The notes below the pieces were generated by a model, which saw nothing but the letters and a program-made list of their open reading frames with translations, did no database searches and was not told the DNA's origin. From IMG/VR virus record IMGVR_UViG_2667527818_000007: a stretch of DNA of 34,477 bases; one strand, 5' to 3'. The stretch comes from a virus (lineage: Duplodnaviria > Heunggongvirae > Uroviricota > Caudoviricetes). Both the position numbers and the translations under genes were made by a program. Below are positions 3,895-34,477 of the stretch, one piece after another (positions within the stretch are counted from its first letter, which is position 1; every line of letters starts with the position of its first letter).

Positions 3895-4166
3895 GTATTC
3901 GTATTGAAATTGGCGAACGTTATGTCGTTACCAGTGACAGCTTTCAGTTTATTCTCCACGAGAAAAAGAGAGCTGAAAGCGGTAAAAACGCCGGTCAGGA
4001 ATGGCTGGCGGTGGTTGGTTATTACCCGAAATTAAGCCAGCTCGTTTCCGGCCTGATGCATCACGATATTCTGACCGGAAGCGCAAAGTCTTTTGCTGAT
4101 TTAAACGCGCAGGTTGAGCAACTCAGCAAGCGTTGTTCAGAGGCTTTTGGCTCATATGGCCGTTAA
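3891..4166 (+). CDS. early-operon hypothetical protein (91 aa)
   Basis: Coupled ORF upstream of gene A; position of P2 orf83. Confidence 0.5.
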   Translation: MSIRIEIGERYVVTSDSFQFILHEKKRAESGKNAGQEWLAVVGYYPKLSQLVSGLMHHDILTGSAKSFADLNAQVEQLSKRCSEAFGSYGR

Positions 4167-6432
4167 AGCCTCCGGGCGTTTTGTCCCTCCGTCAGCATTT
4201 GCCGCAGGCACCGGTAAGACGTTTACCGGTGCTTATGCATGGAACGCGCCACGCGAGGCCGTCGGGCGCGAAAGACCCCTTACACGTGACGAGATGCGTC
4301 AGGTGCAAGGTGTTTTATCCACGATTAACCGCCTGCCTTACTTTTTGCGCTCGCTGTTTACTTCACGGTATGACTACATCCGGCGCAATAAAAGCCCGGT
4401 GCACGGGTTTTATTTCCTCACATCCACTTTTCAGCGTCGTTTATGGCCGCGCATTGAGCGTGTGAATCAGCGCCATGAAATGAACACCGACGCGTCGTTG
4501 CTGTTTCTGGCAGAGCGTGATCACTATGCGCGCCTGCCGGGAATGAATGACAAGGAGCTGAAAAAGTTTGCCGCCCGTATCTCATCGCAGCTTTTCATGA
4601 TGTATGAGGAACTCAGCGATGCCTGGGTGGATGCGCATGGCGAAAAAGAATCACTGTTTACGGATGAGGCTCAGGATCACCTGTATGGTCATGTTGCTGG
4701 CGCTGCACGAGCTTTCAATATTTCCCCTCTCTACTGGAAAAAATACCGTAAAAGACAGATGACCACGAGGCAGGCATATTCTGCCATTGCCCGTCTGTTT
4801 AACGATGAGTGGTGGACTCATCAGCTTAAAGGCCAGCGTATGCGCTGGCATGAAGCGTTACTGATAGCTGTCGGGGAGGTCAATAAAGACCGTTCTCCTT
4901 ATGCCAGTAAACACGCCATTCGTGATGTGCGTGCGCGCCGCCAGGCAAATCTGGAATTTCTTAAATCGTGTGACCTTGAAAACAGGGAAACCGGCGAGCG
5001 CATCGACCTTATCAGTAAGGTGATGGGCAGTATTTCTAATCCTGAAATTCGCCGGATGGAGCTGATGAACACCATTGCCGGTATTGAGCGTTACGCCGCT
5101 GCAGAGGGTGATGTGGGGATGTTTATCACGCTGACCGCGCCGTCAAAGTATCACCCGACACGTCAGGTAGGAAAAGGCGAAAGTAAAACCGTGCAGCTTA
5201 ATCACGGCTGGAACGATGAGGCATTTAATCCAAAGGATGCGCAGCGTTATCTCTGCCGTATCTGGAGCCTGATGCGCACGGCATTCAAGGATAATGATTT
5301 ACAGGTCTACGGTTTGCGTGTCGTCGAGCCACACCACGACGGAACGCCGCACTGGCATATGATGCTTTTTTGTAATTCACGCCAGCGTAACCAGATTATC
5401 GAAATCATGCGTCGCTATGCGCTCAAAGAGGATGGCGACGAAAGAGGAGCCGCGCGAAACCGTTTTCAGGCAAAACACCTTAACCGGGGCGGTGCTGCGG
5501 GATATATCGCGAAATACATTTCAAAAAACATCGACGGCTATGCACTGGATGGTCAGCTCGATAACGACACCGGCATGCCGCTGAAAGACACTGCAGCGGC
5601 TGTTACCGCATGGGCGTCAACGTGGCGCATCCCGCAATTTAAAACGGTTGGCCTGCCGACAATGGGGGCTTACCGTGAACTACGCAAATTGCCGCGCGGC
5701 GTCAGCATTGCTGATGAGTTTGACGAGCGCGTCGAGGCTGCACGCGCCGCCGCAGACAGTGGTGATTTTGCGTTGTATATCAGCGCGCAGGGTGGGGCAA
5801 ATGTCCCGCGCGATTGTCAGACTGTCAGAGTCGCCCGTAGCCCGTCGGATGAAGTTAACGAGTACGAGGAAGAAGTCGAGAGAGTGGTCGGCATTTACGC
5901 GCCGCATCTCGGCGCGCGTCATATTCATATCACCAGAACGACGGACTGGCGCATTGTGCCGAAAGTTCCGGTCGTTGAGCCTTTGACTTTAAAAAGCGGC
6001 ATCGCCGCGCCTCGGAGTCCTGTCAATAACTGTGGAAAGCTCACCGGTGGTGATACTTCGTTACTGGCTCCCACACCTTCTGAGCACGCCGCAGCAGTGC
6101 TTAATCTGGTTGATGACGGTGTTATCGAATGGAATGACCCGGAGGTCGTGAGGGCGCTCAGAGGTGCATTAAAATACGGCCTGAGAAGACCAAACCGTCA
6201 GCAAAGAAACGGAAGCCCGTTAAAACCGCATGAAATTGCACCATCGGCCAGACTGACCCGGTCTGAACGATTGCAAATCACCCGTATCCGCGTTGACCTT
6301 GCTCAGAACGGTATCAGGCCGCAGCGATGGGAGATTGAGGCGCTGGCGCGTGGGGCAACCGTAAATTATGACGGGAAAAAATTCAGATATCCGGTCGCTG
6401 ATGAGTGGCCGGGGTTCTCGTTACCCATTTGA
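4156..6432 (+). CDS. A: rolling-circle replication initiator gpA (HUH endonuclease)
   Basis: HUH-type motif HHDGTPHWHMMLF and tyrosine-containing YIAKYISK. The tracked ORF starts at a TTG at 4114; the ATG at 4156 (MAVKASGRF...) is the more plausible start. Confidence 0.85.
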   Translation: MAVKASGRFVPPSAFAAGTGKTFTGAYAWNAPREAVGRERPLTRDEMRQVQGVLSTINRLPYFLRSLFTSRYDYIRRNKSPVHGFYFLTSTFQRRLWPRIERVNQRHEMNTDASLLFLAERDHYARLPGMNDKELKKFAARISSQLFMMYEELSDAWVDAHGEKESLFTDEAQDHLYGHVAGAARAFNISPLYWKKYRKRQMTTRQAYSAIARLFNDEWWTHQLKGQRMRWHEALLIAVGEVNKDRSPYASKHAIRDVRARRQANLEFLKSCDLENRETGERIDLISKVMGSISNPEIRRMELMNTIAGIERYAAAEGDVGMFITLTAPSKYHPTRQVGKGESKTVQLNHGWNDEAFNPKDAQRYLCRIWSLMRTAFKDNDLQVYGLRVVEPHHDGTPHWHMMLFCNSRQRNQIIEIMRRYALKEDGDERGAARNRFQAKHLNRGGAAGYIAKYISKNIDGYALDGQLDNDTGMPLKDTAAAVTAWASTWRIPQFKTVGLPTMGAYRELRKLPRGVSIADEFDERVEAARAAADSGDFALYISAQGGANVPRDCQTVRVARSPSDEVNEYEEEVERVVGIYAPHLGARHIHITRTTDWRIVPKVPVVEPLTLKSGIAAPRSPVNNCGKLTGGDTSLLAPTPSEHAAAVLNLVDDGVIEWNDPEVVRALRGALKYGLRRPNRQQRNGSPLKPHEIAPSARLTRSERLQITRIRVDLAQNGIRPQRWEIEALARGATVNYDGKKFRYPVADEWPGFSLPI

Positions 6433-6691
6433 GTAAAAACACAACGTAATTTGATATGGCATTGAATGGCTTATGCGGAGCAGTTATGGGGCAGCAGAAG
6501 GTCAATAGCATGCTGAATTAGAAGGCTAAATGCTATTGAGTGACTAGCATGTCGGTAAGGACAGCCGTTTGATCCGGGTCATAAAAGGCCATCCATTTAG
6601 TCTAATAAAATCATTGCGGGTAACCTTATGTCGACGCATAATTCGTCTTGAGCGAAGTCTTGTCAGTCTTTCATCGTATTGATGATGGGCG

Positions 6692-6722
6692 CAAAAAAAC
6701 CACCCTGGCAGGTGGTTTTTTT
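6692..6722. terminator. bidirectional intrinsic terminator
   Basis: aaaaaaaccacc-ctggca-ggtggttttttt: GC stem flanked by an A-run and a T-run; sits between the end of the A operon (+) and the 3' end of the small minus-strand ORF. Confidence 0.65.
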
Positions 6723-6734
6723 GTTTGAAGCATA

Positions 6735-6848
6735 TTAAAGCATAATGCTGACATTGATATTACTGACGTTTACTGACAAACCACTCGGACTACCGTTTGG
6801 ATAGCCAAAGAGGGCCAGAACGAGAATGCAGTAATAGCATTTCTTCAT
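6735..6848 (-). CDS. candidate small hydrophobic peptide (37 aa; MKKCYYCILVLALFGYPNGSPSGLSVNVSNINVSIML)
   Basis: ATG at 6846..6848 (minus) preceded by strong SD (caggaggcaat-ATG) and followed by the bidirectional terminator; hydrophobic N-terminus. The longer 88-aa tracked ORF is probably an upstream extension. Confidence 0.4.
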   Translation of the reverse strand: MKKCYYCILVLALFGYPNGSPSGLSVNVSNINVSIML

Positions 6849-7326
6849 ATTGCCTCCTGTAAGTAGAGGGCAACTTCCACCGGTATATGCGCTTCTTAGG
6901 TGGAATGACTTTTGAGCGAAGTCTTGCCCTGAAATAATGCTCTGTTTAAACGCAAAGTGATTTGGCATATCACCGAACAGAGAGCCGGAAAAACACAACA
7001 TATAGTATGTCGTTGTTTCTAGACATACATTCTATGTTGTGTAACAAGGGCTTTGCATTAAACATGTTTGAGATTTTATTGATGTAGCTCAAAGTAAAAA
7101 ACAGAGACTACGGATGATAAGGTCTTGAAAGCAATGTAAATTTTTTAAAGTTGCCAATTGCTTAAAAATGTACAGTTGCGGTATGGCGTACTTAAAAAGC
7201 TATGCATGCAACAAGTGAATGTTTTTGCATGCGTTGGGGATGTCCGTTCAGGCTGCGTGCGGTCAGGACTGGTGCGGATCCATAGTATCTATGCAACTGC
7301 ATTAAAACCGCCCTGTGAAGCGGGCG

Positions 7327-7345
7327 GGCGAGGCGGGGAAAGCAC
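7327..7345. other. cos site (19-nt cohesive-end sequence ggcgaggcggggaaagcac)
   Basis: Matches my recollection of the P2 cohesive end; located upstream of Q/P at the vegetative genome end, as expected. Confidence 0.6.
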
Positions 7346-7522
7346 TGCGCGCTGGCGGTGGTGCTGATTTTATTTTTTCAGCGTCTCAGCGTCTCAGCGC
7401 GTCGTGACGGCGTTTGGATTGTGCGCCGGGGCGTTGGTGTGTCTGCGGGGTGTTTTGTGCGGTGGTGAGCGTGTGAGGGCGTGATGACGGGGTGTAAAAA
7501 AGCCGCCCGCAGGCGGCGATGT

Positions 7523-8557
7523 TCAGCCGTTGTCAGTGTCCAGTGAGTAGTTTTTAAAGCGGATGACCTCCTGACCGAGCCAGCCGTTTATCTCGCGGAT
7601 CCTGTCCTGTAACGGGATAAGCTCATTGCGGACAAAGACCTTTGCCACTTTCTCAATATCACCCAGCGACCCGACGTTCTCCGGCTTGCCGCCCATCAAC
7701 TGAAAGGGGATGCGGTGCGCGTCCAGCAGGTCAGCGGCGCTGGCTTTTTTGATATTAAAAAAATCGTCCTTCGTTGCCACTTCACTGAGCGGGATAATTT
7801 TAATGCCGTCAGCTTTCCCCTGCGGGGCATAGAGAAACAGGTTTTTAAAGTTGTTGCGGCCTTTCGACTTCACCATGTTTTCGCGAAGCATTTCGATATC
7901 GTTGCGATCCTGCACGGCATCAGTGACGTACATGATATATCCGGCATGAGCGCCGTTTTCGTAATACTTGCGGCGGAACAGCGTGGCCGACTCATTCAGC
8001 CAGGCAGAGTTAAGGGCGCTGAGATATTCCGGCAGACCGTACAGCTCCTGATTAATATCCGGCTCCAGCAGGTGAAACACGGAGCCGGGCGCGAAAGGTG
8101 TCGGCTCGTTGAAGGACGGCACCCACCAGTAAACATCCTCCTCCACGCCACGGCGGGTATATTTTGCCGGTGAGGTTTCCAGTCTGATGACCTTACCGGT
8201 GGTGCTGTAACGCTTTTCCAGAAACGCATTACCGAATACCAGAAAATCCAGCACAAAGCGGCTGAAATCCTGCTGAGAAAGCCACGGGTGTGGGATAAAC
8301 GTTGAGGCCAGAATATTACGTTTGACGTAAATCGGTGAGCTGTGATGCACGGCAGCACGCAGGCTTTTTGCCAGACCGGTAAAGCTGACCGGTGGCTCAT
8401 ACCATCTGCCGTTACTGATGCACTCGACGTAATCCAGAATGTCACGGCGGTCGAGTACCGGCACCGGCTCACCAAAGGTGAATGCCTCCATTTTCGGGGC
8501 GCTGGCGGTCATTTTTTTTGCCGCAGGTTGCGGTGTTTTCCCTTTTTTCTTGCTCAT
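7523..8557 (-). CDS. Q: portal protein gpQ (344 aa)
   Basis: Same length as P2 Q; precedes the terminase gene on the minus strand, reading toward cos. Confidence 0.85.
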   Translation of the reverse strand: MSKKKGKTPQPAAKKMTASAPKMEAFTFGEPVPVLDRRDILDYVECISNGRWYEPPVSFTGLAKSLRAAVHHSSPIYVKRNILASTFIPHPWLSQQDFSRFVLDFLVFGNAFLEKRYSTTGKVIRLETSPAKYTRRGVEEDVYWWVPSFNEPTPFAPGSVFHLLEPDINQELYGLPEYLSALNSAWLNESATLFRRKYYENGAHAGYIMYVTDAVQDRNDIEMLRENMVKSKGRNNFKNLFLYAPQGKADGIKIIPLSEVATKDDFFNIKKASAADLLDAHRIPFQLMGGKPENVGSLGDIEKVAKVFVRNELIPLQDRIREINGWLGQEVIRFKNYSLDTDNG

Positions 8558-10329
8558 CAGTAAAACTCCAGAATGGTGGATGTCAGCGGGGTGCTGATAC
8601 CGGCGGTGAGTGGCTCATTTAACAGGGCGTGCATGGTCGCCCAGGCGAGGTCGGCGTGGCTGGCTTCCTCGCTACGGCTGGCCTCATAGGTGGCGCAGCG
8701 TCCGCTGCTGGTCATGGTCTTGCGGATAGCCATAAACGAGCTGGTGATGTCGGTGGCGCTGACGTCATATTCCAGACAGCCACGGCGGATGACGTCTTTT
8801 GCCTTGAGCACCATTGCGGTTTTCATTTCCGGCGTGTAGCGGATATCGCGCGCGGCGGGATAGAACGAGCGCACGAGCTGGAACACGCCGACACCGAGGC
8901 CGGTGGCATCAATTCCGATGTATTCGACGTTGTATTTTTCGGTGAGTTTGCGGATGGATTCCGCCTGAGTGGCAAAGTCCATGCCTTTCCACTGGTGACG
9001 CTCAAGTATTCTGAATTTACCTCCGGCCACCACCGGCGGTGCCAGCACCACGCATCCGGCGCTGTCGCCACGGTGTGACGGGTCGTAACCAATCCATACC
9101 GGGCGGGAGCCGAACGGATTGGCGGCAAACGGCGCATAGTCTTCCCATTCTTCCAGCGTGTCGACCATGCAGCGTTGCAGCTCCTCGAACGGGAACACCG
9201 ACGCCTTGTCGTCAACAAATTCACACATGAACAGGTTTTTAAAATCGTCGGCGCTGTTTTCACGTTTGAGCTGCTCAATGTCGAACAGCGTGCAGCCACC
9301 TTTCAGGGCGTCCTCAATGGTGACAATCTGCCGCCACTGGCCGTCCGCACAGAGAAGCCCCCCGGCAAGGGCGTTATGACTGACGTCGATTTCCACGCGT
9401 TCGGCGGCGCTGGCGCGTCCCCGGTTGAACAGTTCACCCGACCAGAATGGGTAGGCGTCGTGCGCCAGCGTGGACGGGGTGGAGAAATAGGTCGAGCGCA
9501 GGTGGCTCTGTGAGGCCATACCTGATGCCACCTTACGCAGTACCTGAAAATTCGGGATCCAGAAAATCTCGTCGACGTACAGGTCGCCGTTATGGCTCTG
9601 TGCGGTGTTGGAGTTGGTGCCGAGAAAAATCAGTTTTGCGCCGTTATTGCCCAGGACAATCGGGTCACCGGTCAGGTCAACGTCAACCAGCCGGGCAAAG
9701 GCGATGATGTATTCGCGGAACACATACGCCTGCGTTTTACTGGCCGACAGAAAAATCTGGTTATGACCGGTTTTCAGGGCGCGCAGCAGCGCCTCGCGGG
9801 AAAAATAAAACGTCGCGCCAATCTGGCGGGATTTCAGGATATCGCGGATGCGGTGCTCAAGCCCGGCGCGATACCAGTGCAACTGATAGTCGAAAGACTG
9901 CTCAAAGAAAATCTGCTCCAGCTTTTCGATGGCCTCGTCACTGAAAAAATTCTTTTTCGGTTTGCGACGCCCGCCTTTGTTGCGGTTAGCGACGTTCGGA
10001 TTAAGGTCTGCCTCGTTGCCGGTCTGACTGTAGCGGTTTACCCGTGCCAGTCGTTCAATCTGGCGTCCGAGCAGGTCAATTTCCTTGAAGTCACCGCCGG
10101 TTTTCTGCGGTTTGATGATGAGCTGGGTCAGCCGCGCTTCCAGACTCATTTCGACACGGCTGATGGGGGCAACGCTGTCCCAGCCGTCGCGCTGTTTCCA
10201 GCTCTGCACCGTCGGGCGTTTCATCTGCAACATGGCGGCAATCTGCGGCACGGAAAATCCCTGCCAGTACAGCAGCGCCGCCTGACGACGCGGGTCGTGT
10301 AAAAGAGTGGTGTCTGTGGTGATGGTCAT
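8557..10329 (-). CDS. P: terminase large subunit gpP (590 aa from internal start MTITTD...)
   Basis: Length matches P2 P when started at the Met at 10329; the tracked ORF extends 10 codons upstream. Confidence 0.85.
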   Translation of the reverse strand: MTITTDTTLLHDPRRQAALLYWQGFSVPQIAAMLQMKRPTVQSWKQRDGWDSVAPISRVEMSLEARLTQLIIKPQKTGGDFKEIDLLGRQIERLARVNRYSQTGNEADLNPNVANRNKGGRRKPKKNFFSDEAIEKLEQIFFEQSFDYQLHWYRAGLEHRIRDILKSRQIGATFYFSREALLRALKTGHNQIFLSASKTQAYVFREYIIAFARLVDVDLTGDPIVLGNNGAKLIFLGTNSNTAQSHNGDLYVDEIFWIPNFQVLRKVASGMASQSHLRSTYFSTPSTLAHDAYPFWSGELFNRGRASAAERVEIDVSHNALAGGLLCADGQWRQIVTIEDALKGGCTLFDIEQLKRENSADDFKNLFMCEFVDDKASVFPFEELQRCMVDTLEEWEDYAPFAANPFGSRPVWIGYDPSHRGDSAGCVVLAPPVVAGGKFRILERHQWKGMDFATQAESIRKLTEKYNVEYIGIDATGLGVGVFQLVRSFYPAARDIRYTPEMKTAMVLKAKDVIRRGCLEYDVSATDITSSFMAIRKTMTSSGRCATYEASRSEEASHADLAWATMHALLNEPLTAGISTPLTSTILEFY

Positions 10330-10502
10330 GAATACCTCGCCGTGATGAATACACGGCAAGGCTACTGAGTCGCGCCCCGCGATTCGCTAAGGTGCTGTTG
10401 TGTCAGTGATAAGCCATCCGGGACTGATGGCGGAGGATGCGTATCGTCGGGAAACTGATGCCGACATGTGACTCCTCTAATCACTATTCAGGACTCCTGA
10501 CA

Positions 10503-19189: not shown

Positions 19190-21508
19190 ATGAGCACAAA
19201 ATTCAGAACCGTTATCACCACTGCCGGTGCAGCAAAGCTGGCAGCGGCAACCGCACCGGGAGGGCGGAAGGTCAACATTACCACGATGGCCGTCGGGGAT
19301 GGCGGTGGTAAATTGCCTGTCCCGGATGCCGGACAGACCGGGCTTATCCACGAAGTCTGGCGACATGCGCTGAACAAAATCAGCCAGGACAAACGAAACA
19401 GTAATTATATTATCGCAGAGCTGGTTATTCCGCCGGAGGTGGGCGGTTTCTGGATGCGTGAGCTTGGCCTGTACGATGATGCAGGAACGTTAATTGCCGT
19501 GGCGAACATGGCCGAAAGTTATAAGCCTGCCCTTGCCGAAGGCTCAGGGCGTTCGCAGACCTGCCGCATGGTCATCATCGTCAGCAGTGTGGCCTCAGTG
19601 GAGCTGACTATTGACACCACAACGGTGATGGCAACGCAGGATTACGTTGATGACAAAATTGCAGAGCACGAACAGTCACGACGTCACCCGGACGCCTCTC
19701 TGACCGCAAAAGGTTTTACTCAGCTAAGCAGCGCGACCAACAGCACGTCTGAAACACTGGCCGCAACGCCGAAAGCGGTAAAGGCCGCCTATGACCTTGC
19801 TAACGGGAAATATACTGCGCAGGATGCCACCACGGCGCGAAAAGGCCTTGTTCAGCTCAGTAGTGCGACTAACAGCACGTCTGAAACGCTCGCCGCAACA
19901 CCAAAAGCGGTAAAAGCAGCGTATGACCTTGCTAACGGGAAATATACCGCACAGGACGCCACCACAGCGCGAAAAGGCCTTGTCCAGCTCAGTAGTGCCA
20001 CCAACAGCGATTCTGAAACGCTTGCGGCAACGCCAAAGGCGGTTAAGACAGCGTATGACCTTGCTAACGGGAAATACACTGCACAGGATGCCACCACGGC
20101 GCGGAAAGGCCTTGTCCAGCTCAGTAGTGCCATCAACAGCGATTCTGAGACGCTGGCTGCAACACCAAAAGCGGTGAAGTCTGCCTATGACAATGCTGAA
20201 AAACGTCTTCAGAAAGATCAGAATGGTGCGGATATTCCGGGAAAGGATACCTTCACGAAAAATATCGGTGCCTGTCGTGCTTATAGCGGCGCTTTGAGCA
20301 CTGAAGCCGGAAACTGGACAACCGCTCAGTTTATTGAATGGCTGGATTCCCGTGGTGCATTTAATCATCCGTACTGGATGTGCAAAGGCTCCTGGTCATA
20401 TGCAAATAACAAAATCATTACGGATACCGGATGTGGTGATATCCACCTGGCTGGTTGTGTCGTCGAGGTCATGGGAACAAAATCTGCAATCACTATTCGA
20501 GTGACCACGCCGACAACATCAAGCGGTGGCGGTACAACCAGCGCGCAATTCACTTACATTAATCATGGGGACGGCTACTCCCCCGGCTGGCGTCGTGACT
20601 GGAATCGTCAGGGCGACGCAATGACCGGAACGATTAATCAGGATGGCGGAAGCCAGAATGCCTATATGTCTACGGCCTTATGTTCAGGCACCAGAGGCGG
20701 CAAAAAATATCTCAGAAAGTTTCGTGGTGGAGAAGGAGACACTATCTGGCATGAAACAGTGCAGGGCGGGGTAATTCGCTGGGCGACAGGAAACTATGAC
20801 GCTCAGGAAGAATTATCACTCAGCTCCGCTTATGGTCTCCGTTCTAGAGGTGAAATTACATCACTCAGTGCTAATGGTCTGCGCATTGCTTATGGCAATT
20901 ATGGATTCTTTATCAGGAATGATGGTGGCAGCACATATTTAATGCTGACGGCCTCTGGTGATAAATTTGGGACATGGAACGGTTTAAGGCCGCTGACTAT
21001 CAATAACGCTAATGGCGGAGTGTCAATGGGGCATGGCCTGAGTGTTACTGGTGATATTGCCTCAAGTACCAAAGTACGTGCCGGTAGCGGGAAAAAGTTC
21101 ACGGTCAGCAGCAGAAATACATCCACGAAGGAAGCCGCATTCAATTTGTGGGGAAACTCAAGTCGTCCTGTGGTGGCTGAATTAGGTGATGATGCAGGCT
21201 GGCATTTTTACAGTCAGAGAAATACAGATAACAGCATCACTTTTGCTGTTAACGGGCAGGTATCACCATCTAACTATAGTAATTTTGATTCACGCTATGT
21301 CCGGGATATCCGGCTTGGTGGTGCTGCCACATACAAACCTGCGAACAATGGCATGACATGGACACATCAGGCACCGTCCGGGTGTGTATATTCCGGCATT
21401 ATTGTTCAGGATACCGGCTCAAACTCTGCCGATAACATTGGTGGCATATATTACAGACCGGTGCAGAAATACATTAACGGGACATGGTATAACGTGGCGC
21501 AGGTATAA
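19190..21508 (+). CDS. H: tail fiber protein gpH (772 aa) with internal tandem repeats
   Basis: Conserved N-terminus, then about 3.6 tandem copies of a 41-aa unit and a variable C-terminal receptor-binding region; followed by G. Confidence 0.85.
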   Translation: MSTKFRTVITTAGAAKLAAATAPGGRKVNITTMAVGDGGGKLPVPDAGQTGLIHEVWRHALNKISQDKRNSNYIIAELVIPPEVGGFWMRELGLYDDAGTLIAVANMAESYKPALAEGSGRSQTCRMVIIVSSVASVELTIDTTTVMATQDYVDDKIAEHEQSRRHPDASLTAKGFTQLSSATNSTSETLAATPKAVKAAYDLANGKYTAQDATTARKGLVQLSSATNSTSETLAATPKAVKAAYDLANGKYTAQDATTARKGLVQLSSATNSDSETLAATPKAVKTAYDLANGKYTAQDATTARKGLVQLSSAINSDSETLAATPKAVKSAYDNAEKRLQKDQNGADIPGKDTFTKNIGACRAYSGALSTEAGNWTTAQFIEWLDSRGAFNHPYWMCKGSWSYANNKIITDTGCGDIHLAGCVVEVMGTKSAITIRVTTPTTSSGGGTTSAQFTYINHGDGYSPGWRRDWNRQGDAMTGTINQDGGSQNAYMSTALCSGTRGGKKYLRKFRGGEGDTIWHETVQGGVIRWATGNYDAQEELSLSSAYGLRSRGEITSLSANGLRIAYGNYGFFIRNDGGSTYLMLTASGDKFGTWNGLRPLTINNANGGVSMGHGLSVTGDIASSTKVRAGSGKKFTVSSRNTSTKEAAFNLWGNSSRPVVAELGDDAGWHFYSQRNTDNSITFAVNGQVSPSNYSNFDSRYVRDIRLGGAATYKPANNGMTWTHQAPSGCVYSGIIVQDTGSNSADNIGGIYYRPVQKYINGTWYNVAQV
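19718..20190 (+). repeat. about 3.6 tandem copies of a 123-nt (41-aa) repeat inside H
   Basis: LSSATNS(T/D)SETLAATPKAVKAAYDLANGKYTAQDATTARKGLVQ repeated; nucleotide copies differ mainly at synonymous positions. Confidence 0.85.
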
Positions 21509-21511
21509 TTT

Positions 21512-22036
21512 ATGCAGCATTTGATAAATATAACGGCGGGTAATCCAAAAACAGTTGAACAATATCAATTGACAAAGGGCTTTGATGTTGTCTGGTTTTT
21601 TACAGAAGATGGTAAGAACTGGTACGAAGAACAAAAGTATTTTGCTGATGACACGATAAAAATAGCGTACGACAAAGATAATATTATCCGCTATGTGGAA
21701 AAGGATGTGACAGCTATCAGGCCGGATGGATTAAGTGTTGTTGAAGTGCCGGATATTACTGCTAACCGACGGGCGGACATTTCAGGGGGCTGGATGTTTA
21801 AGGACGGCAAAGTGATTAAACGCATTTATACGGCAGAGGAATTACAACAGCAGGCAGAAATTCGGAAAGCCAGACTTCTTGCAGATGCTGAATCCGTGAT
21901 TTTGCCACTGGAGCGCGCTGTCAGGCTGAATATGGCAACAGATGAGGAGCGCAGCCGACTGGAAGCATGGGAACGCTACAGCGTTCTGGTCAGTCGTGTG
22001 GATCCTACAAATCCTGAATGGCCTGAAATGCCGTAA
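21512..22036 (+). CDS. G: tail fiber assembly chaperone gpG (174 aa)
   Basis: Immediately downstream of H; length close to P2 G. Confidence 0.8.
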
Positions 22037-22261
22037 TAAGTTGTATGAGCTTACATATCTATGGCACAGAGTAAATCCTAATCTGACAGTCCGCTCTGTG
22101 CCAGCTGCGGAAGTTTATAATATGTTTATGGAGTTTGGTGTAAAATCAATTAACTAATTGATTTATATTGATTTTGTTGTGGGGGGTAGCAAAGCATTGT
22201 TTTCAATGCAATATACAGATGAGTAAATTTTACTGCCTAATCTAATAGAGTGTAAGCCACA

Positions 22262-22302
22262 CATAAAAATTAACTATGGCTGATCATTATACAATCAGCC
22301 AT
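22262..22302 (-). terminator. probable intrinsic terminator of the 451-aa cargo gene
   Basis: 9-bp stem atggctgat/atcagccat (22276..22302) followed on the minus strand by a T-rich run, about 10 nt after the stop codon. Confidence 0.5.
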
Positions 22303-22311
22303 AGCTGAGAG

Positions 22312-23667
22312 CTATTTGTCACTAGCCATATCTTTCTTGCATTTTGGACATGGCACCAACATATCTTCTTTCACCAAGTAATAATATGGAATTATTATGC
22401 TATAACCCTGACAAGTTATATGTTCATATGCGATCGTTGGTGTCATATCTTCTTTATCATCGGATTCTATCGGAACCTCCCTAAACATTAATTCAGGTAG
22501 TGGTAAATCCTCTGGGTTATATAATGTCACCATCAATGGTTGTCTTTGGTATGCTTCCTCATTATTTGGAGTTTGACCTGAAGCCAAGTCGATTAACTTA
22601 ACCATATTAATCTGTTCATTGCTAACACAATAATTTACTAATGTATTTAAAGCTTTCTCTTTGAATAAACGATGATATGGACCGTGTGCTTTACAGTTAA
22701 TTAACTCATTAAACATGCCAAAATTAAATTCGTAAGAATAATCTCCAGCAGTTAAAGGTAGTCTATAATAATCACTTATATTTACATTCCCTTTTTGAGT
22801 ATTATTCAACAATGTAATCATTAAATTGTGGAAGTTAACTAAGGAACAACCATCACGATCAGGAAAGCCATGTACAATCATGTCAGTTGCATTAATCATC
22901 CTATCTGAATTATGACTCAGATATTCATTGTTGTTACCAAATAAAAAATAGCCTTTATTTAATATGAAAACTGCATTTGGTAGTAATTTTGTTTCATTAC
23001 TCTGGATTTCTTCCTTAAGAGCAGATACTATATCATCCCAGTGCATTTCTGTTTCATAAGCAAAAACAACTCCAAACCCTGCGAGTGATTTGTTATTTAT
23101 ATAAAATCCATGGTCATTCTTTTTTCTTTGTAGTTTTTTATATGATGCAATGTTTTTTATGGCGCTGCTTAATTCTTTCCTGGTAAGGTTTGATTTTACT
23201 TGAATAACTCCATATACATTTTCAGAAGGGTAAACATCATATATTTCGTTACGCTGCATTAGCACATATCCATCATCTGCATCATATAATGCGATGTCAA
23301 TCTCGTTGCTAAGATGTCCTGTAGCAGCAGCAACTCTTACGCTTCTTGAAGATACAGCATAACGCCCTGGGAATAAACCGCTTAATTTCAAGAAGTTTTT
23401 TAGTATATTTTCTCGAGCATTGCCTAAGTCTCTTGGATGGGATATATCCCTCGTTTTCTCGTATTCAAATTCAATATTTTTTTGAAAGTAATTCAGTTCT
23501 CTGATAATGCCATGAAAATCTCGTTCTTTACTACGAATATCGTTCACATGTTTATTTAAATTTGAAAAATACTCACGTATATTCATTTCCTTTTTATCAA
23601 ACTCTGCACGTCGTTCTTTTTCAGCTTTTGTTATCCGAACTTTCCTAGTTTTTTGTTGCTTAGTCAT
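22312..23667 (-). CDS. hypothetical protein (451 aa), partner of the SIR2-like gene; possible nuclease-like core
   Basis: Intact AT-rich ORF in the G-FI hotspot; charged Lys/Arg/Glu-rich N-terminus; weak PD-(D/E)xK-like pattern (IDIALYD...GVIQVKS, aa about 124-158); C-terminal Cys cluster (...CQGY...CPKC). Function not established. Confidence 0.55.
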   Translation of the reverse strand: MTKQQKTRKVRITKAEKERRAEFDKKEMNIREYFSNLNKHVNDIRSKERDFHGIIRELNYFQKNIEFEYEKTRDISHPRDLGNARENILKNFLKLSGLFPGRYAVSSRSVRVAAATGHLSNEIDIALYDADDGYVLMQRNEIYDVYPSENVYGVIQVKSNLTRKELSSAIKNIASYKKLQRKKNDHGFYINNKSLAGFGVVFAYETEMHWDDIVSALKEEIQSNETKLLPNAVFILNKGYFLFGNNNEYLSHNSDRMINATDMIVHGFPDRDGCSLVNFHNLMITLLNNTQKGNVNISDYYRLPLTAGDYSYEFNFGMFNELINCKAHGPYHRLFKEKALNTLVNYCVSNEQINMVKLIDLASGQTPNNEEAYQRQPLMVTLYNPEDLPLPELMFREVPIESDDKEDMTPTIAYEHITCQGYSIIIPYYYLVKEDMLVPCPKCKKDMASDK

Positions 23668-24141
23668 TATATATTAACCCTATTAATAAGCGTATAAGTA
23701 AAGAAGATCGTATCATATCAAATACTATCAAATTCTGAGAGCAGTTTTTATAATAGTCAATCATATAGAAAGTAAAATCCTCGTGCTCAGCCTAAATATC
23801 TGCGCCGAATATCACTACATTTTTCCAGACCACTCTTCCCCTAACCTCCGCTCCTTGCTCAGCGCGGACCTTCTGTCCAGTGAGGTAGTCCGCTACGAGC
23901 AAGAAGTGGACCATGTTGTACTAATTATTAGAGAGTAAATCATTATGTATCGGATTGAATCTTGACTCACAGGTGGCACAATGTTTTCATATTGTAATTT
24001 GTGTATATATGCAGATGGTTACAGTTTCAACTATGTTTTTGTAATTTTAAAAATAGAATTTATTGTTTGTTTATTGATGTGTTTGTATTAAAGAATTCAT
24101 TTTATAGCCCTCTATAGAGGGCTCTACAAAGATAGTCAGTA

Positions 24142-25656
24142 TTATTGTGACGAGTACCGTTTAAAATCATATAAGCTAACAAGTCTTTTATAATCTGAGG
24201 ATGATATTTCAAGGGTAACTCCTTCCCTCAAATATCCTTCGATATTATCAAGGTCAATATTGTTTACATATGTGTTGTAAAAAATAACTCGAACGAGTTT
24301 GTACGGTTTGAATCCGAGGGAAATGATTTCATCCACTGTGTCGCAGTTAATTCTTTCAGATTCATCAATAGAATTAAAATAGGTGGTAAGATTTGTTTCC
24401 TGATTATTTTTAAGTTGCTCAATATTTTGTATTTCATTACATATTGTGGAAAATCCATGCGCTGTAAAATACTGTGTTCGGGTTACTTTTATTTTATTTA
24501 ATAGCATGATTAGCGCATCATTTTTGGAGTCCATGATTTCAAAATAATTCATAACCATTTCGGATGCTGATTGATAATGGTAAGTTATTTTCTGCACAGA
24601 TCCAACAGCCATGACTAGTTCGTCATTAGCTAAGTTATCTAAATCACCAACTATTTTCACTTTAACAGTACCGCCTTCTTTTATTTTTCTCATTACTCCT
24701 TCAACCTTTCTAATATCCATAGATGATACTGGAAGTTTAAGGTTTATTAACCCCTCGAAAATCCCTTGAAAATTATCGGTTTTAATCTTGTTGATTTTAA
24801 TATTACCAATATTTTCGATAACCACATCATGTTCAAGCACTTCAAGGGAGTTGTTGTCTGCGTCTCGTTCAATAAGCAGAAAATTCTTTCTAACCTTATC
24901 GGCTAAATCGGAATCTTTAGGAATATAAGAAAAAATAGTTTTCAGAATCTCTCTGATATTCTCATCGCTTATGCTATAGCCGATAAATATAATAGGATTG
25001 TGAATGAATAAAGAAATGAGCTGGGCTCTAATTAAGTGATTATTGATTTTAAATCTTTCATAATCGGAATCTGAAATCACAATAGATTCAGGATGTGAAA
25101 CACAACCGTGTATTTTATATACAGATCCGTAAGGGTTACTTAGCAGAATATCATTCCCAATGATTGGATTAAACCCAATCAATGTCTCAATGAATCTATC
25201 ATAATTCGTTGTAATAACTGAGCCTATATTTCGACTTGCTTTTGCAAATAATTCCATTTCTGTTGCATACTTATCATCATCATTTATTTGATGTAGATCT
25301 ACAAGTTCAGATATAAATATTTTCATGCGACTGGCAGAGTAGTTTCCTGAAGCAGCATACTCGTAGTATTTGTCATTTATTCTTTTAAACTTACCGTTCC
25401 TATCAGCTTCTAATAATCTATTGAACTCTGTTTCAATTTCGCTAGCTACTTTTGGTAGATCAATTTCACCTAAAGAATTAGCGTTCCTGCCTGCGGAGTC
25501 AAAATAAAAGTCATGACTCCCTTTCATTTCGTAAACAATCTTTTTTAGAAGTTCTGACCATGAGTAAGTGCCTACCAGGTATCTCCGGCTAAACCCTGCA
25601 CCAACAAACACTACTGGATGGTTTACATAAGATTCCATGAATTCACTAATATTCAT
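24142..25656 (-). CDS. SIR2-like (sirtuin-fold) protein (504 aa) with an uncharacterised C-terminal domain; candidate NAD+-consuming defence effector
   Basis: Sirtuin-family signature order in the N-terminal half: VFVGAGFS (GAGxS, aa 19-23), TTNYD (aa 149-153), KIHG (aa 181-184). The C-terminal half of about 250 aa is not Gly-rich and not recognised. SD ggagaagg upstream of the ATG. Confidence 0.7.
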   Translation of the reverse strand: MNISEFMESYVNHPVVFVGAGFSRRYLVGTYSWSELLKKIVYEMKGSHDFYFDSAGRNANSLGEIDLPKVASEIETEFNRLLEADRNGKFKRINDKYYEYAASGNYSASRMKIFISELVDLHQINDDDKYATEMELFAKASRNIGSVITTNYDRFIETLIGFNPIIGNDILLSNPYGSVYKIHGCVSHPESIVISDSDYERFKINNHLIRAQLISLFIHNPIIFIGYSISDENIREILKTIFSYIPKDSDLADKVRKNFLLIERDADNNSLEVLEHDVVIENIGNIKINKIKTDNFQGIFEGLINLKLPVSSMDIRKVEGVMRKIKEGGTVKVKIVGDLDNLANDELVMAVGSVQKITYHYQSASEMVMNYFEIMDSKNDALIMLLNKIKVTRTQYFTAHGFSTICNEIQNIEQLKNNQETNLTTYFNSIDESERINCDTVDEIISLGFKPYKLVRVIFYNTYVNNIDLDNIEGYLREGVTLEISSSDYKRLVSLYDFKRYSSQ

Positions 25657-26118
25657 TTATCCTTCTCCATAACAGGAATATTTATAGCTGATAAAGCATA
25701 CAGCATCTTTGATGAAGATGCCTTCAATTTTGTTCACTCATCATCCTATTCTACCTGTTTCATGACACAACAAGCCCAGAACAGCAGTATGTATGCCATT
25801 GGGGGAGCATATGGATTCAATTAAGTTACGGTCAGAATATCTTACATTCATCCAAAGTGAGGCAATATATATAATTTAGCAAATTAACATTGTCACCACT
25901 GCCAGTTAGGGTTATGGGAATAAACAAGGCCTACAGGGATTCTTAGCAACTGTACCCACAGATCGTTGATAATAATCCTCTCAGTTGATTATTTTTCCTC
26001 AGATCACTGAGAAATACAGGCTATTTCCGCTTTACGCTCAAAGCAGACTGTCAGATTTGTTAGCGTTTGGGCTATGTAAATTGTCAGTTGGAAAATGAGT
26101 GAGTGCAAATCATGACAG

Positions 26119-26144
26119 GCAGGCGGATTACCCGCCTTTTCTTT
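26119..26144 (+). terminator. putative plus-strand intrinsic terminator upstream of the FI late promoter
   Basis: aggcgg-attac-ccgcct followed by ttttcttt; short GC stem plus U-run. Confidence 0.35.
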
Positions 26145-26240
26145 GTCTGTTGTTTCATCCACTGACCAGCTAGGTCAAATAGCGTCTCATGCACTGCACA
26201 ACAGAAAATAGTTGCACCCATTAACCACGGAGTTAAACGG

Positions 26241-27431
26241 ATGAGTGACTATCATCATGGCGTGCAGGTGCTGGAGATTAACGACGGCACCCGCGTCATT
26301 TCCACCGTATCCACCGCCATTGTCGGCATGGTCTGCACGGCCAGCGATGCGGATGCGGAAACCTTCCCCCTCAATAAACCGGTGCTGATTACCAATGTGC
26401 AGAGCGCAATTGCAAAGGCCGGTAAAAAAGGCACGCTGGCGGCATCGTTGCAGGCTATCGCTGACCAGTCAAAACCGGTCACCGTTGTCGTGCGTGTGGA
26501 AGACGGCAGCGGCGACGACGAGGAAACGAAACTCGCGCAGACCGTTTCCAATATCATCGGCACCACCGACGAAAACGGTCAGTACACCGGACTGAAAGCC
26601 CTGCTGGCGGCGGAGTCGGTAACCGGTGTTAAACCGCGCATTCTCGGTGTGCCGGGACTGGACACCAAAGAGGTTGCCGTCGCACTGGCATCAGTCTGTC
26701 AGAAGCTGCGCGCTTTCGGGTATATCAGCGCATGGGGCTGTAAAACCATTTCCGAGGTGAAAGCCTACCGCCAGAATTTCAGCCAGCGTGAGCTGATGGT
26801 CATCTGGCCGGATTTCCTCGCATGGGATACGGTCACCAGTACCACCGCCACCGCGTATGCCACCGCCCGTGCGCTGGGTCTGCGCGCTAAAATCGACCAG
26901 GAGCAGGGCTGGCATAAAACGCTGTCCAATGTCGGGGTGAACGGTGTTACCGGCATCAGCGCCTCTGTATTCTGGGATTTGCAGGAGTCCGGCACTGATG
27001 CTGACCTGCTTAACGAGTCAGGCATCACAACGCTGATTCGCCGCGACGGTTTCCGCTTCTGGGGTAACCGTACCTGCTCCGATGACCCGCTGTTCCTCTT
27101 TGAAAACTACACCCGCACCGCGCAGGTGCTGGCCGACACGATGGCTGAGGCGCACATGTGGGCGGTGGACAAGCCTATCACCGCAACGCTGATTCGCGAC
27201 ATCGTTGACGGCATCAATGCCAAATTCCGTGAGCTGAAAACAAACGGCTATATCGTGGATGCGACCTGCTGGTTCAGCGAAGAATCCAACGATGCGGAAA
27301 CCCTCAAGGCCGGAAAACTGTATATCGACTACGACTATACACCGGTGCCTCCTCTTGAAAACCTGACCCTGCGCCAGCGTATTACCGATAAATACCTGGC
27401 AAATCTGGTCACCTCGGTTAACAGCAATTAA
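26241..27431 (+). CDS. FI: tail sheath protein gpFI (396 aa)
   Basis: Same length and order as P2 FI. Confidence 0.9.
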   Translation: MSDYHHGVQVLEINDGTRVISTVSTAIVGMVCTASDADAETFPLNKPVLITNVQSAIAKAGKKGTLAASLQAIADQSKPVTVVVRVEDGSGDDEETKLAQTVSNIIGTTDENGQYTGLKALLAAESVTGVKPRILGVPGLDTKEVAVALASVCQKLRAFGYISAWGCKTISEVKAYRQNFSQRELMVIWPDFLAWDTVTSTTATAYATARALGLRAKIDQEQGWHKTLSNVGVNGVTGISASVFWDLQESGTDADLLNESGITTLIRRDGFRFWGNRTCSDDPLFLFENYTRTAQVLADTMAEAHMWAVDKPITATLIRDIVDGINAKFRELKTNGYIVDATCWFSEESNDAETLKAGKLYIDYDYTPVPPLENLTLRQRITDKYLANLVTSVNSN

Positions 27432-32943: not shown

Positions 32944-33021
32944 TAAAAAATAAGCCCGTGTAAGGGAGATTACACAGGCTAAGGAGGTGGTTCCTGGTAC
33001 AGCTAGCATTTTATGGGTTAT
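32944..33021 (-). ncRNA. cyaR: CyaR (RyeE) Hfq-dependent sRNA
   Basis: Minus strand reads gctgaaaaacataacccataaaatgctagctgtaccaggaaccacctccttagcctgtgtaatctcccttacacgggcttatttttt, matching my recollection of CyaR including the CCACCUCCUU seed-like motif and the terminator hairpin. Confidence 0.8.
32945..32971. repeat. attR core: second copy of the 27-bp att repeat; overlaps the cyaR terminator hairpin
   Basis: Exact match to 478..504. Confidence 0.85.
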
Positions 33022-33115
33022 GTTTTTCAGCGAAACGGATGATAACCTTAATAAATGCAGCTGTATGTGATCGGTTTCTAAGAATTTTCCATCCGGGAAA
33101 AATAATCGAAATTAA

Positions 33116-34477
33116 TCACTTACCGTGTGGGTTACGCGTGGTTTCCCCGGAGAAATTACGCATCAGCAGAGCGTAATTGAGCTCAAGATCCTGCGGGACC
33201 GGGAGCCACACAGTATAACCATCGCCTGGTGCGACCGGCATCGCTTCACCTTTGGCGTTTTCCATGTGCTCAAGGGTAAAGTTAATGTTGCCTTGCGGCG
33301 TCATCAGCTCAAGGCTGTCGCCAACGGAGAATTTATTTTTCACCGCTACCGCCGCGAGGTCCCCCTTGCGCTCACCGGTAAACTCACCAACAAACTGCTG
33401 GCGGTCAGAAACTGAATAACCGTATTCGTAGTTCTGATAATCGTCGTGAGTATGACGACGCAGGAAACCTTCGGTATAGCCACGATGCGCCAGACCTTCC
33501 AGAGTTTCCAGCAGGCTGGTATCGAACGGTTTGCCCGCAGCGGCGTCATCGATAGCTTTACGGTAAACCTGTGCGGTGCGTGCGCAATAGTAGAAAGATT
33601 TAGTACGGCCTTCGATTTTCAGCGAATGCACGCCCATTTTGGTCAGGCGTTCTACATGGGCGATGGCGCGCAGATCTTTCGAGTTCATGATGTAAGTGCC
33701 GTGCTCATCTTCAAACGCGGTCATATACTCGCCCGGACGCTGGGCTTCTTCGATCATAAACACTTTGTCGGTTGGCGCGCCGATACCCAGCGTCGGCTCA
33801 ACATTTTGCACCGGAATCGGCTCGTACTTGTGTACGATGTTGCCAACGTCATCTTCTTTCCCTTCCTGGACGTTGTACTCCCAGCGGCAGGCGTTGGTGC
33901 AGGTACCCTGGTTCGGATCGCGCTTGTTGATATAGCCAGAGAGCAGGCAGCGACCGGAGTAGGCCATGCACAGTGCGCCGTGAACGAAGATCTCGATCTC
34001 CATATCCGGCACCTGATTGCGGATCTCTTCAATCTCTTCCAGCGACAGCTCGCGAGAGAGGATCACGCGGGTCAGGCCCATTTGCTGCCAGAATTTCACC
34101 GTCGCCCAGTTTACGGCGTTAGCCTGCACCGAGAGGTGGATCGGCATTTCAGGGAAGTGCTCACGCACCAGCATAATCAGCCCTGGATCGGACATAATCA
34201 GCGCATCCGGCCCCATTTCCACCACCGGTTTCAGGTCACGGATAAAGGTTTTCAGCTTGGCGTTGTGCGGTGCAATGTTGACCACGACATAAAACTTTTT
34301 CCCCAGCGCGTGGGCTTCATTGATGCCGAGCTGAAGATTTTCGTGGTTGAATTCGTTGTTGCGCACACGCAGGGAGTAACGCGGCTGGCCCGCATAAACA
34401 GCATCTGCGCCATAAGCGAAAGCGTAACGCATATTTTTCAGCGTTCCCGCCGGGGAAAGGAGTTCCGGTTTAAACAT
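33116..34477 (-). CDS. yegQ: peptidase U32-family protein YegQ (453 aa; tRNA hydroxylation-associated)
   Basis: Complete 453-aa ORF beginning MFKPELLSPAGTLKNMRYAFAYGADAVYAGQPRYSLRV...; recognised as the U32 peptidase-family host gene next to cyaR. Confidence 0.8.
   Translation of the reverse strand: MFKPELLSPAGTLKNMRYAFAYGADAVYAGQPRYSLRVRNNEFNHENLQLGINEAHALGKKFYVVVNIAPHNAKLKTFIRDLKPVVEMGPDALIMSDPGLIMLVREHFPEMPIHLSVQANAVNWATVKFWQQMGLTRVILSRELSLEEIEEIRNQVPDMEIEIFVHGALCMAYSGRCLLSGYINKRDPNQGTCTNACRWEYNVQEGKEDDVGNIVHKYEPIPVQNVEPTLGIGAPTDKVFMIEEAQRPGEYMTAFEDEHGTYIMNSKDLRAIAHVERLTKMGVHSLKIEGRTKSFYYCARTAQVYRKAIDDAAAGKPFDTSLLETLEGLAHRGYTEGFLRRHTHDDYQNYEYGYSVSDRQQFVGEFTGERKGDLAAVAVKNKFSVGDSLELMTPQGNINFTLEHMENAKGEAMPVAPGDGYTVWLPVPQDLELNYALLMRNFSGETTRNPHGK

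Follow-up and report, generated by a model that had tools for sequence, protein, structure and literature searches.

The spacer between the SIR2 and DUF6602 genes of a P2-like prophage is probably the seam between two repeat-bounded one-gene cassettes

In P2-like coliphages, inverted repeats lie on both sides of the variable Z/fun locus (Nilsson, Karlsson & Haggard-Ljungquist 2004, Mol Biol Evol 21:1, as summarised in Benler & Koonin 2022, PMC8987985). According to that summary, the same Z/fun cargo and repeats also occur in bacterial genomes, and the repeats were proposed to serve site-specific exchange. A 2022 paper on the P2/P4 hotspots does not mention the repeats and leaves the recombination pathway open; our text search of 8 million papers gave no match to the repeat sequence described below, and keyword searches returned only the secondary mention of the 2004 work. 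The present analysis concerns a 34,477-nucleotide (nt) sequence of the class Caudoviricetes (IMG/VR record IMGVR_UViG_2667527818_000007, hereafter the window) and, within it, a 474-bp gap (23668..24141) that separates two minus-strand cargo genes, from the ATG of an open reading frame (ORF) of 451 amino acids (aa), which encodes a DUF6602 protein, to the stop codon of a 504-aa ORF, which encodes a SIR2 protein. The window is a complete P2-like (Peduovirus-type) prophage of Escherichia coli. Both cargo genes sit in a 4.2-kb insert of low guanine plus cytosine (GC) content between gpG and gpFI, that is, in the Z/fun variable locus as identified by the Pfam assignments of the flanking genes. Phage family, locus and inverted-repeat-flanked cargo are the same as in the 2004 report, as far as the later summary describes it.

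We conclude, with a probability of about 0.8, that the gap is a seam: two one-gene cassettes, each self-contained and acquired independently of the other, adjoin here in the gpG/gpFI (Z/fun) hotspot. A first-pass annotation, made from the letters of the window, had described a GC-rich patch, an imperfect inverted repeat and a perfect palindrome in the gap, and all three were borne out. The GC content is 0.52 in 23770-23900 and 0.58 in 23843-23914, compared with 0.30 in the remainder of the gap; the inverted repeat consists of cttgctcagcgcggac (23854-23869) and gtccgctacgagcaag (23888-23903) with 18 nt between them; and the 18-bp palindrome agccctctatagagggct occupies 24106-24123, 18 nt from the SIR2 stop codon. 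The arms of the inverted repeat are longer than first noted, 23 nt each (23847-23869 and 23888-23910). On this reading, the GC-rich patch is two recombination-site repeats placed back to back, a copy of type A, an 18-nt spacer and an inverted copy of type B, and not an RNA. The gap holds no credible ORF, as had been stated; the small ones it contains (the largest has 51 aa) run through the repeats and were rejected as genes. Among the functions that had been suggested for the gap, that of a recombination scar was essentially right. The gap is a mosaic whose blocks of homology meet inside a repeat.

The mosaic emerged when 5,426 complete E. coli genomes were searched for the gap. The entire gap was present in 12 of them, at an identity of at least 99%. 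Gap positions 1-202 alone were found in 11 genomes, beside DUF6602 without SIR2, in a different integrative element in which the shared DNA stops 2 bp from the stop codon of a tyrosine integrase gene. Gap positions 176-474 alone were found in one genome, beside SIR2 without DUF6602, in a lambdoid prophage. We refer to the SIR2-only locus, in the lambdoid prophage of E. coli NADC1036, as L001, and to the DUF6602-only locus beside the integrase as L002. By local blastn, window positions 22060-23869 matched L002 with 94.5% identity and positions 23843-26049 matched L001 with 95.5% identity; the two blocks overlap in 23843-23869 only, and no other stretch is shared by all three of these sequences (window, L001 and L002). 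The DNA downstream of SIR2 (23911-24141) is conserved with L001 and is missing beside SIR2 relatives of 77% nt identity. Distant SIR2 relatives (77% nt or 44-46% aa identity) have neither the repeats nor the 3' flank, which indicates that the repeats belong to the cassette frame and not to the gene family. The features of the hotspot are collected in Table 1.

The type A repeat is TCCGCTCCTCGCTCAnAGCGGAC, with the consensus TCCGCT-yyTCGCTCAnA-GCGGAC, and the type B repeat is GTCCGCTTCGTGCCAGAAGCGGA, with the plus-strand consensus GTCCGC-TTyGTGCCAGA-AGCGGA; B is the reverse complement of A apart from consistent central changes. Allowing up to three mismatches, the pattern TCCGCTCCnnGCTCAnnGCGGAC has four copies in the window versus 0.02 expected, and the resulting order is B, DUF6602, A, 18 nt, B, SIR2, A. 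Across copies, positions 7, 8 and 16 vary freely and the rest are at least 90% fixed; at positions 10 and 13, A has C and T where B has G and A, with almost no exceptions. The repeat is preceded by AAYG and followed by CRTT in about 70-85% of copies; outer RYYY/RRRY parts were not evident. Where two repeats form a composite, 18 nt is the commonest spacing, found in 120 of 219 composites (55%; loose motif matching, both strands counted) and in 32 of 59 unique junctions under strict typing, and the 18-nt spacer is itself partly conserved as CTTCnGCnCAGT. Three unrelated backbones have in common a TGGCACAG(AG) box placed 18-20 nt leftward of their terminal B repeat (window 22062-22071, about 1110 in L001, about 3400 in L002); the box corresponds to the middle of a B copy in inverted orientation, and it may be what is left of a second repeat that once stood at array ends.

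The outer repeats of the hotspot (B at 22089-22111, A at 26026-26048) are kept among phages with different cargo. Eight other P2-family phages, each with different cargo, were compared; five or more of them keep each boundary repeat, and in the remainder it is missing or more diverged. The boundary takes the form aatctgacaG-TCCGCTCTGTGCCAG..GCGGA after gpG and TCCGCT...CGCTCAAAGCAGAC-tgtcagatt before FI. In blastn comparisons with three of these eight phages and with prophage L206, similarity to the window stopped at 22111-22116 and resumed at 26020-26029, at the inner edges of the two boundary repeats. By megablast against cultured Peduoviruses the two flanks alone aligned, covering 18% of 21500-26300, and the cargo was different in every phage; the GC content of the hotspot is 0.33, versus 0.51 for the whole window. 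The same cargo and repeats occur outside P2, in L001 and L002. A transposon was rejected as the source of this arrangement: in P2-type hotspots the outer flanks are inverted (aatctgaca / tgtcagatt) and form no direct target duplications, and no transposase was found in or near the cassettes. The second classical P2 variable region, from gene A to portal (6433-7522), is short in this window, with ORFs of at most 88 aa, and has no A/B repeat; in this phage the repeats are therefore specific to the gpG/gpFI hotspot.

As judged by alignment, homology between unrelated backbones breaks inside the repeats, and variant positions place the putative crossovers inside them at three boundaries. The A copy at 23847 is a hybrid: its left flank is of L002 type, and its positions 16-17 and everything rightward are of L001 type. 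In the A copy at 26026, positions 7-9, in the inner half, are of L001 type, and position 20 and the right flank are of P2 type. In the B copy at 22089, the left flank and position 4 are of P2 type, and positions 16-17 and the right flank are of L002 type. In many locus pairs with only one flank in common, the differences were concentrated in that half of the repeat which is farther from the common flank; these pairs are not independent of each other.

The repeats are widely distributed. The exact pattern was found in 73 IMG/VR contigs, with many unrelated sequences on both sides, and a slightly looser pattern in more than 120 species representatives, nearly all of them Enterobacterales and several Alteromonadales. 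Copies were seen, for instance, in Idiomarina, Pseudidiomarina, Rheinheimera and Alteromonas. Junction-like matches are present in 2,605 of the 5,426 E. coli genomes, at one to six places in each, and were never annotated. A dispersed repeat of the REP/BIME (REPIN) kind, which would show tens to hundreds of intergenic copies in each genome, was rejected on this copy number; about half of the E. coli genomes have none. One common class of viral contigs (L009, L015, L018 and about 20 other IMG/VR loci) carries a Chi site (GCTGGTGG) in a conserved flank, about 40 nt after A; on the other side of the A repeat, this class has at least six unrelated sequences. In phage lambda (NC_001416, 27323-27345; L208 8824-8846), one A-type repeat, AACT-TCCGCTCCTCGCTCATAACAGAC, was found between ea59 and sib/attP, and no B copy was found in lambda 18.5-29.5 kb. 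The lambda ea59 gene encodes an AAA ATPase and adjoins ea31, an HNH nuclease gene; the cargo of the lambda b region may be bounded by the same kind of site.

Strict typing of A and B, on the central 11 nt, revealed a constant layout, in which each cassette of the family runs from B through its cargo to A. The commonest pair at cassette distance is B..A (102 of about 205), and at junctions A then B prevails (65, plus 10 A/A); B then A was never seen. Within an array the A copies are direct repeats of each other, as are the B copies, and the array ends are single repeats, not pairs. The L001 array reads B, hypothetical gene, A-18-B, AbiH, A (degenerate), hypothetical gene, A-18-B, SIR2, A; L002 reads B, DUF6602, A; and in another P2 prophage the two cargo genes are joined in the same way. 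The four-cassette array of L001 (1138-7205; AbiH, SIR2 and two hypothetical genes) lies between a DUF977 gene and hokD, and its first cassette agrees at the right end with the right cargo end of a sequenced Peduovirus P2 genome (L077). A set of 100 unique cassettes had a median length of 1.7 kb and a GC content of 0.42. Polarity relative to B->A was the same in all 36 pairs with similar interiors, and the longest ORF of the cassette was split 51:49 between the strands. Cargo is diverse, with 81 protein clusters in 97 cassettes. It includes defence-type genes (GajA of Gabija, OLD, AbiT/AbiL, AriA-like of a PARIS-like system, PD-T7-1, DUF4238, SIR2 and nucleases) and ordinary accessory genes (LysR, MFS, hydrolases, ArsB, a TonB receptor). 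The chromosomal cassettes of other Enterobacterales (L085-L204) mostly carry LysR, short-chain dehydrogenase (SDR), AraC, LysE, aldo-keto reductase (AKR) and MFS genes rather than defence genes.

That the GC-rich inverted repeat might be a structured RNA (a small RNA, a processing site, a bidirectional terminator or an insulator) is suggested by its location between two convergently or serially arranged transcription units and by its fold, as on either strand the 72 nt fold more stably than shuffled controls. As single-stranded DNA it reaches -14 to -15 kcal/mol (z = -3.0 on the plus strand, -2.3 on the minus strand). This good fold arises because two conserved sequences lie in inverted order. 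In 32 independent junctions with an 18-nt spacer (mean column identity 79%), pairing and covariation did not exceed those of column shuffles, since 490 of 500 shuffles scored equally high or higher; at four arm positions the conserved bases do not pair, and partner arms were not more complementary than shuffled partners. In single repeats, the candidate pairs 7/16 and 8/15 pair just as independence predicts, and no internal covariation was detected. The covariation check that the first-pass annotation had proposed for homologous islands thus gave no support for an RNA or a DNA structure, and the hairpin was rejected as a selected structure, whether as an A-spacer-B stem or within single repeats. 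The lack of covariation points to recognition of sequence rather than folding. An intrinsic terminator was rejected as well, because no T-run follows the hairpin on either strand and no site was called in 23843-23914. A small non-coding RNA, one of the earlier suggestions, found no Rfam match: CyaR alone passed the gathering threshold in the window, and nothing credible appeared in 23600-24200 at E values up to 10; a tRNA search gave no match. Single repeats at array ends and a repeat polarity independent of the cargo strand (51:49) also speak against a structured RNA, which we consider very improbable.

The premise that the two genes are operon partners was not supported. A two-gene defence operon of SIR2 and DUF6602, in which the gap would supply an internal promoter, an attenuator or a regulator-binding site, would agree with the adjacency of the genes on one strand, with the defence-type domains of both and with the occurrence of the pair in 12 E. 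coli genomes. All 12 pairs are at least 99% identical and so represent one recent arrangement, for which the P2 prophage context was confirmed in the best match. Either gene occurs alone in other mobile elements, at 94-95% nt identity and with its own part of the gap only. SIR2 relatives in other viral contigs lack the repeats and, by a DUF6602 search, a nearby DUF6602 gene. By terminator scan and folding, DUF6602 is followed by a predicted terminator of canonical form and SIR2 by a terminator-like hairpin, and the SIR2 protein matches the single-gene PADLOC candidate PDC-S25. There is at best a slim chance that the pair forms an operon, and SIR2 and DUF6602 are to be studied as two separate one-gene candidates. 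As to signals within the gap, the suggestion of a terminator or independent promoter is, by motif scans, compatible with its outer parts on either side of the junction; a consensus scan gave a promoter-like site at 23760-23732 (TTGACT-17-CAGAAT) within the 5' flank of DUF6602. The suggestion of a regulator-binding site fits the pattern of homology breakpoints poorly.

The palindrome after SIR2 is the only perfect palindrome of at least 14 bp in the window, simulated sequence giving 0.14 per window and 0.04 per hotspot. It is unchanged in L001 despite substitutions in its flanks, and occupies the place where DUF6602 has its canonical terminator (22306-22272). Its tail, AUAAAAUGAAUUCUUU, is a poor T-run that fails the T-run rule, and it was not called by the terminator scan. 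It is probably the terminator-like or 3'-end hairpin of SIR2. The predicted terminator of DUF6602 and this palindrome, 18 nt past the SIR2 stop codon, agree with cassettes that are self-contained.

Table 1. Features of the hotspot and of the prophage backbone in the window
Feature	Position	Strand	Remarks
B-type repeat GTCCGCTCTGTGCCAGCTGCGGA	22089..22111	+	Left edge of hotspot and of DUF6602 cassette, just after gpG; motif search
Intrinsic-terminator-like hairpin directly after DUF6602 stop	22272..22306	-	Terminator scan: 16-pair stem, then AATTTTTATG
Cargo gene 1, 451-aa DUF6602 / PD-(D/E)xK NucC-like nuclease	22312..23667	-	Pfam PF20247 4.5e-22; PADLOC PD_DExK and NucC models
DUF6602 5' flank	23668..23846	-	Travels with DUF6602 in 11 E. 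coli genomes without SIR2, 94% identity
A-type repeat TCCGCTCCTTGCTCAGCGCGGAC	23847..23869	+	Right end of DUF6602 cassette, putative crossover site, left arm of hairpin
Junction spacer, 18 nt, cttctgtccagtgaggta	23870..23887	+	
B-position repeat GTCCGCTACGAGCAAGAAGTGGA	23888..23910	+	Left end of SIR2 unit, right arm of hairpin; conserved with L001
SIR2 AT-rich 3' flank	23911..24105	-	93-95% identical in L001, which is without DUF6602
Perfect 18-bp palindrome, 7-bp stem and 4-nt loop	24106..24123	-	RNA hairpin fold -12.6 kcal/mol, z = -2.7; DNA fold z = -3.8
Cargo gene 2, 504-aa SIR2_2 protein	24142..25656	-	Pfam PF13289 4.4e-24; PADLOC PDLC04968 1.9e-144 (candidate PDC-S25)
A-type repeat TCCGCTTTACGCTCAAAGCAGAC	26026..26048	+	Right edge of SIR2 unit and of hotspot, before gpFI; motif search
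Integrase	584-1597		
Replication protein A (gpA)	4114-6432		
Portal and terminase	7523-10359		
Tail fibre H	19190-21508		
Tail-fibre assembly G	21512-22036		
Sheath FI	26241-27431		Tape measure and gpD also present

In the backbone of the prophage, a canonical intrinsic terminator (AGGCGGATTACCCGCCT then TTTCTTTGTC) is present on the plus strand at 26121-26137, in the conserved stretch between the right A repeat and gpFI. Its position places the entire cargo region between the gpG stop codon and this terminator, inside the 3' end of the late tail-fibre transcript. Just past the late-control end of the prophage, the small RNA CyaR (32948-33033, minus strand, Rfam 100.7 bits) and a U32 peptidase gene (yegQ; 33116-34477, minus strand) mark the junction with the host.

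How the seam came about can be proposed from the order of the repeats. In the simplest history, the SIR2 unit (spacer-B-SIR2-A) may have entered by A x A recombination: exchange between A copies in direct repeat would excise spacer-B-SIR2-A as a circle, and the circle would insert at the A copy of a P2 hotspot in which B-DUF6602-A was already present; the outcome of a double crossover would be identical. Less certainly, the repeats would be sites for a sequence-specific DNA-binding enzyme. The predicted site has 9-bp dyad arms, GTCCGCTyy / rnAGCGGAC, round a 6-bp centre that is TCGCTC in A and TGGCAC in B, and a symmetric binder would recognise the double-stranded sequence of both sites. The differing centres would permit A x A and B x B exchange only, so that cassettes would neither invert nor delete, which would fit the fixed polarity. 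We tentatively suggest, as a doubtful proposal, that A and B are heterospecific sites of a dedicated exchange system served by a candidate trans-acting recombinase or site-specific nuclease. If this is true, single-gene units are moved as circles or by double exchange, and the system connects chromosomes, integrase islands and prophages of the P2 and lambda types throughout Enterobacterales and Alteromonadales; it would amount to an integron-like cassette economy without a linked integrase and would explain how anti-phage genes turn over in prophage hotspots.

Short-homology recombination is a serious alternative to a dedicated enzyme. The same anatomy could arise without dedicated machinery if A and B were portable identity patches of 23-33 bp, crossed by RecA or by annealases of the Red/RecT/Erf type, the repeats being conserved since only cassettes keeping them go on spreading. 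Arrays of cassettes occur in lambdoid prophages, and lambdoid prophages usually encode annealing recombinases that tolerate short, imperfect homology. No recombinase was linked to the repeats in any context, and the inferred crossovers are spread along the repeat and not at one position. If identity alone were selected, every position should be equally constrained and symmetric arms would be unnecessary; what is found are three free positions beside neighbours that are at least 95% fixed across Enterobacterales and Alteromonadales, dyad symmetry of the arms and an almost absolute two-position difference between A and B. We hold recombination across identity patches to be somewhat less than an even bet.

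Several observations weigh against the reading of the gap as a seam between exchanged cassettes, or against the exchange proposed for it. The crossover signal is a trend that distinguishes the left and right halves of the repeat rather than a sharp point, mapping over many locus pairs gave no single crossover position, and ordinary recombination across 23-33 bp of identity would also yield such a signal. Among 914 clustered ORFs from 120 species, no recombinase or nuclease linked to the repeats was found, the commonest neighbours being LysR, SDR, AraC, LysE, AKR and MFS. P2 is not known to encode a recombinase other than its integrase, and the repeat is not known to resemble the P2 attP core. 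A simple circle-insertion model does not fully explain the partly conserved spacer and the single terminal repeats. No P2 prophage with just one of the two cassettes was found in the 5,426 E. coli genomes. Finally, promoters and terminators were assigned from consensus scans and folding, and the palindrome has no proper T-run.

The seam between two cassettes offers a concrete, testable anatomy for the swapping of defence genes in prophage hotspots, with two 23-nt sites in a fixed layout, putative crossovers inside these sites and a cargo of more than 100 distinct genes. The A/B repeats are unannotated in RefSeq and are possible landmarks for new cargo genes and for the engineering of cassette exchange.

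Four described systems can be compared with the A/B repeats and their cassettes. Like integrons, A/B loci consist of arrays of small, mostly single-gene cassettes between imperfect palindromes of about 65-70 nt, with direct repeats that would allow excision and re-insertion of circles, and with defence cargo. The AAY...RTT round the palindrome may correspond to the AAC...GTT core triplets at the outer ends of an attC palindrome. They differ from integrons in that the region from gpG to gpFI contains neither an integron integrase nor an attI nor a common promoter, no recombinase was found among the commonest neighbours of the repeats in 120 loci, cargo is carried in either direction with its own signals, and array ends are single repeats. 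An attC site keeps its structure while its sequence varies; A/B repeats are conserved in sequence, without covariation.

The pdif modules of Acinetobacter plasmids are acted on by host XerC/D and have no linked recombinase. They share with A/B cassettes the bounding of accessory modules by short inverted sites in many backbones, again with no linked recombinase. The A/B consensus is unlike the 28-bp, 11-6-11 dif consensus, by direct comparison with the dif sequence; adjacent modules are parted here by two sites and a spacer instead of one shared site; and the hosts are Enterobacterales prophages and chromosomes. In engineered cassette exchange with heterospecific lox or FRT sites, which is artificial and uses a known enzyme, swapping is favoured and inversion or loss prevented. 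Those sites too are inverted, related but non-identical and different only in their central bases, in keeping with the fixed polarity observed here; for A/B sites the enzyme, and even the need for one, is only proposed.

Morons and the promoter/stem-loop mobile regulatory cassettes (PeSL) of T4-type phages are self-contained accessory genes, each with a promoter and terminator, inserted between conserved phage genes, with short boundary repeats as crossover points. A/B cassettes likewise have their own signals and short repeated boundaries, and the cargo of the window has the features of morons, namely a low GC content (0.33 versus 0.51), the DUF6602 terminator and promoter-like sites, the last two from scans. 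The A/B repeats differ from such boundaries in that they serve neither as terminators nor as other transcription signals, and their orientation does not follow the direction of the cargo. Judged by analogy, the A/B system appears functionally to resemble integrons, pdif modules and heterospecific exchange, and departs from integrons and pdif modules in the features that define these two. With respect to P2 itself, the outer repeats of the hotspot are prior art. What differs from the 2004 Z/fun report, in so far as it is conveyed by the later summary, is the tandem of two cassettes with an A-18 nt-B junction, and on that second-hand account the locus is a new tandem instance of repeat-bounded exchangeable cargo.

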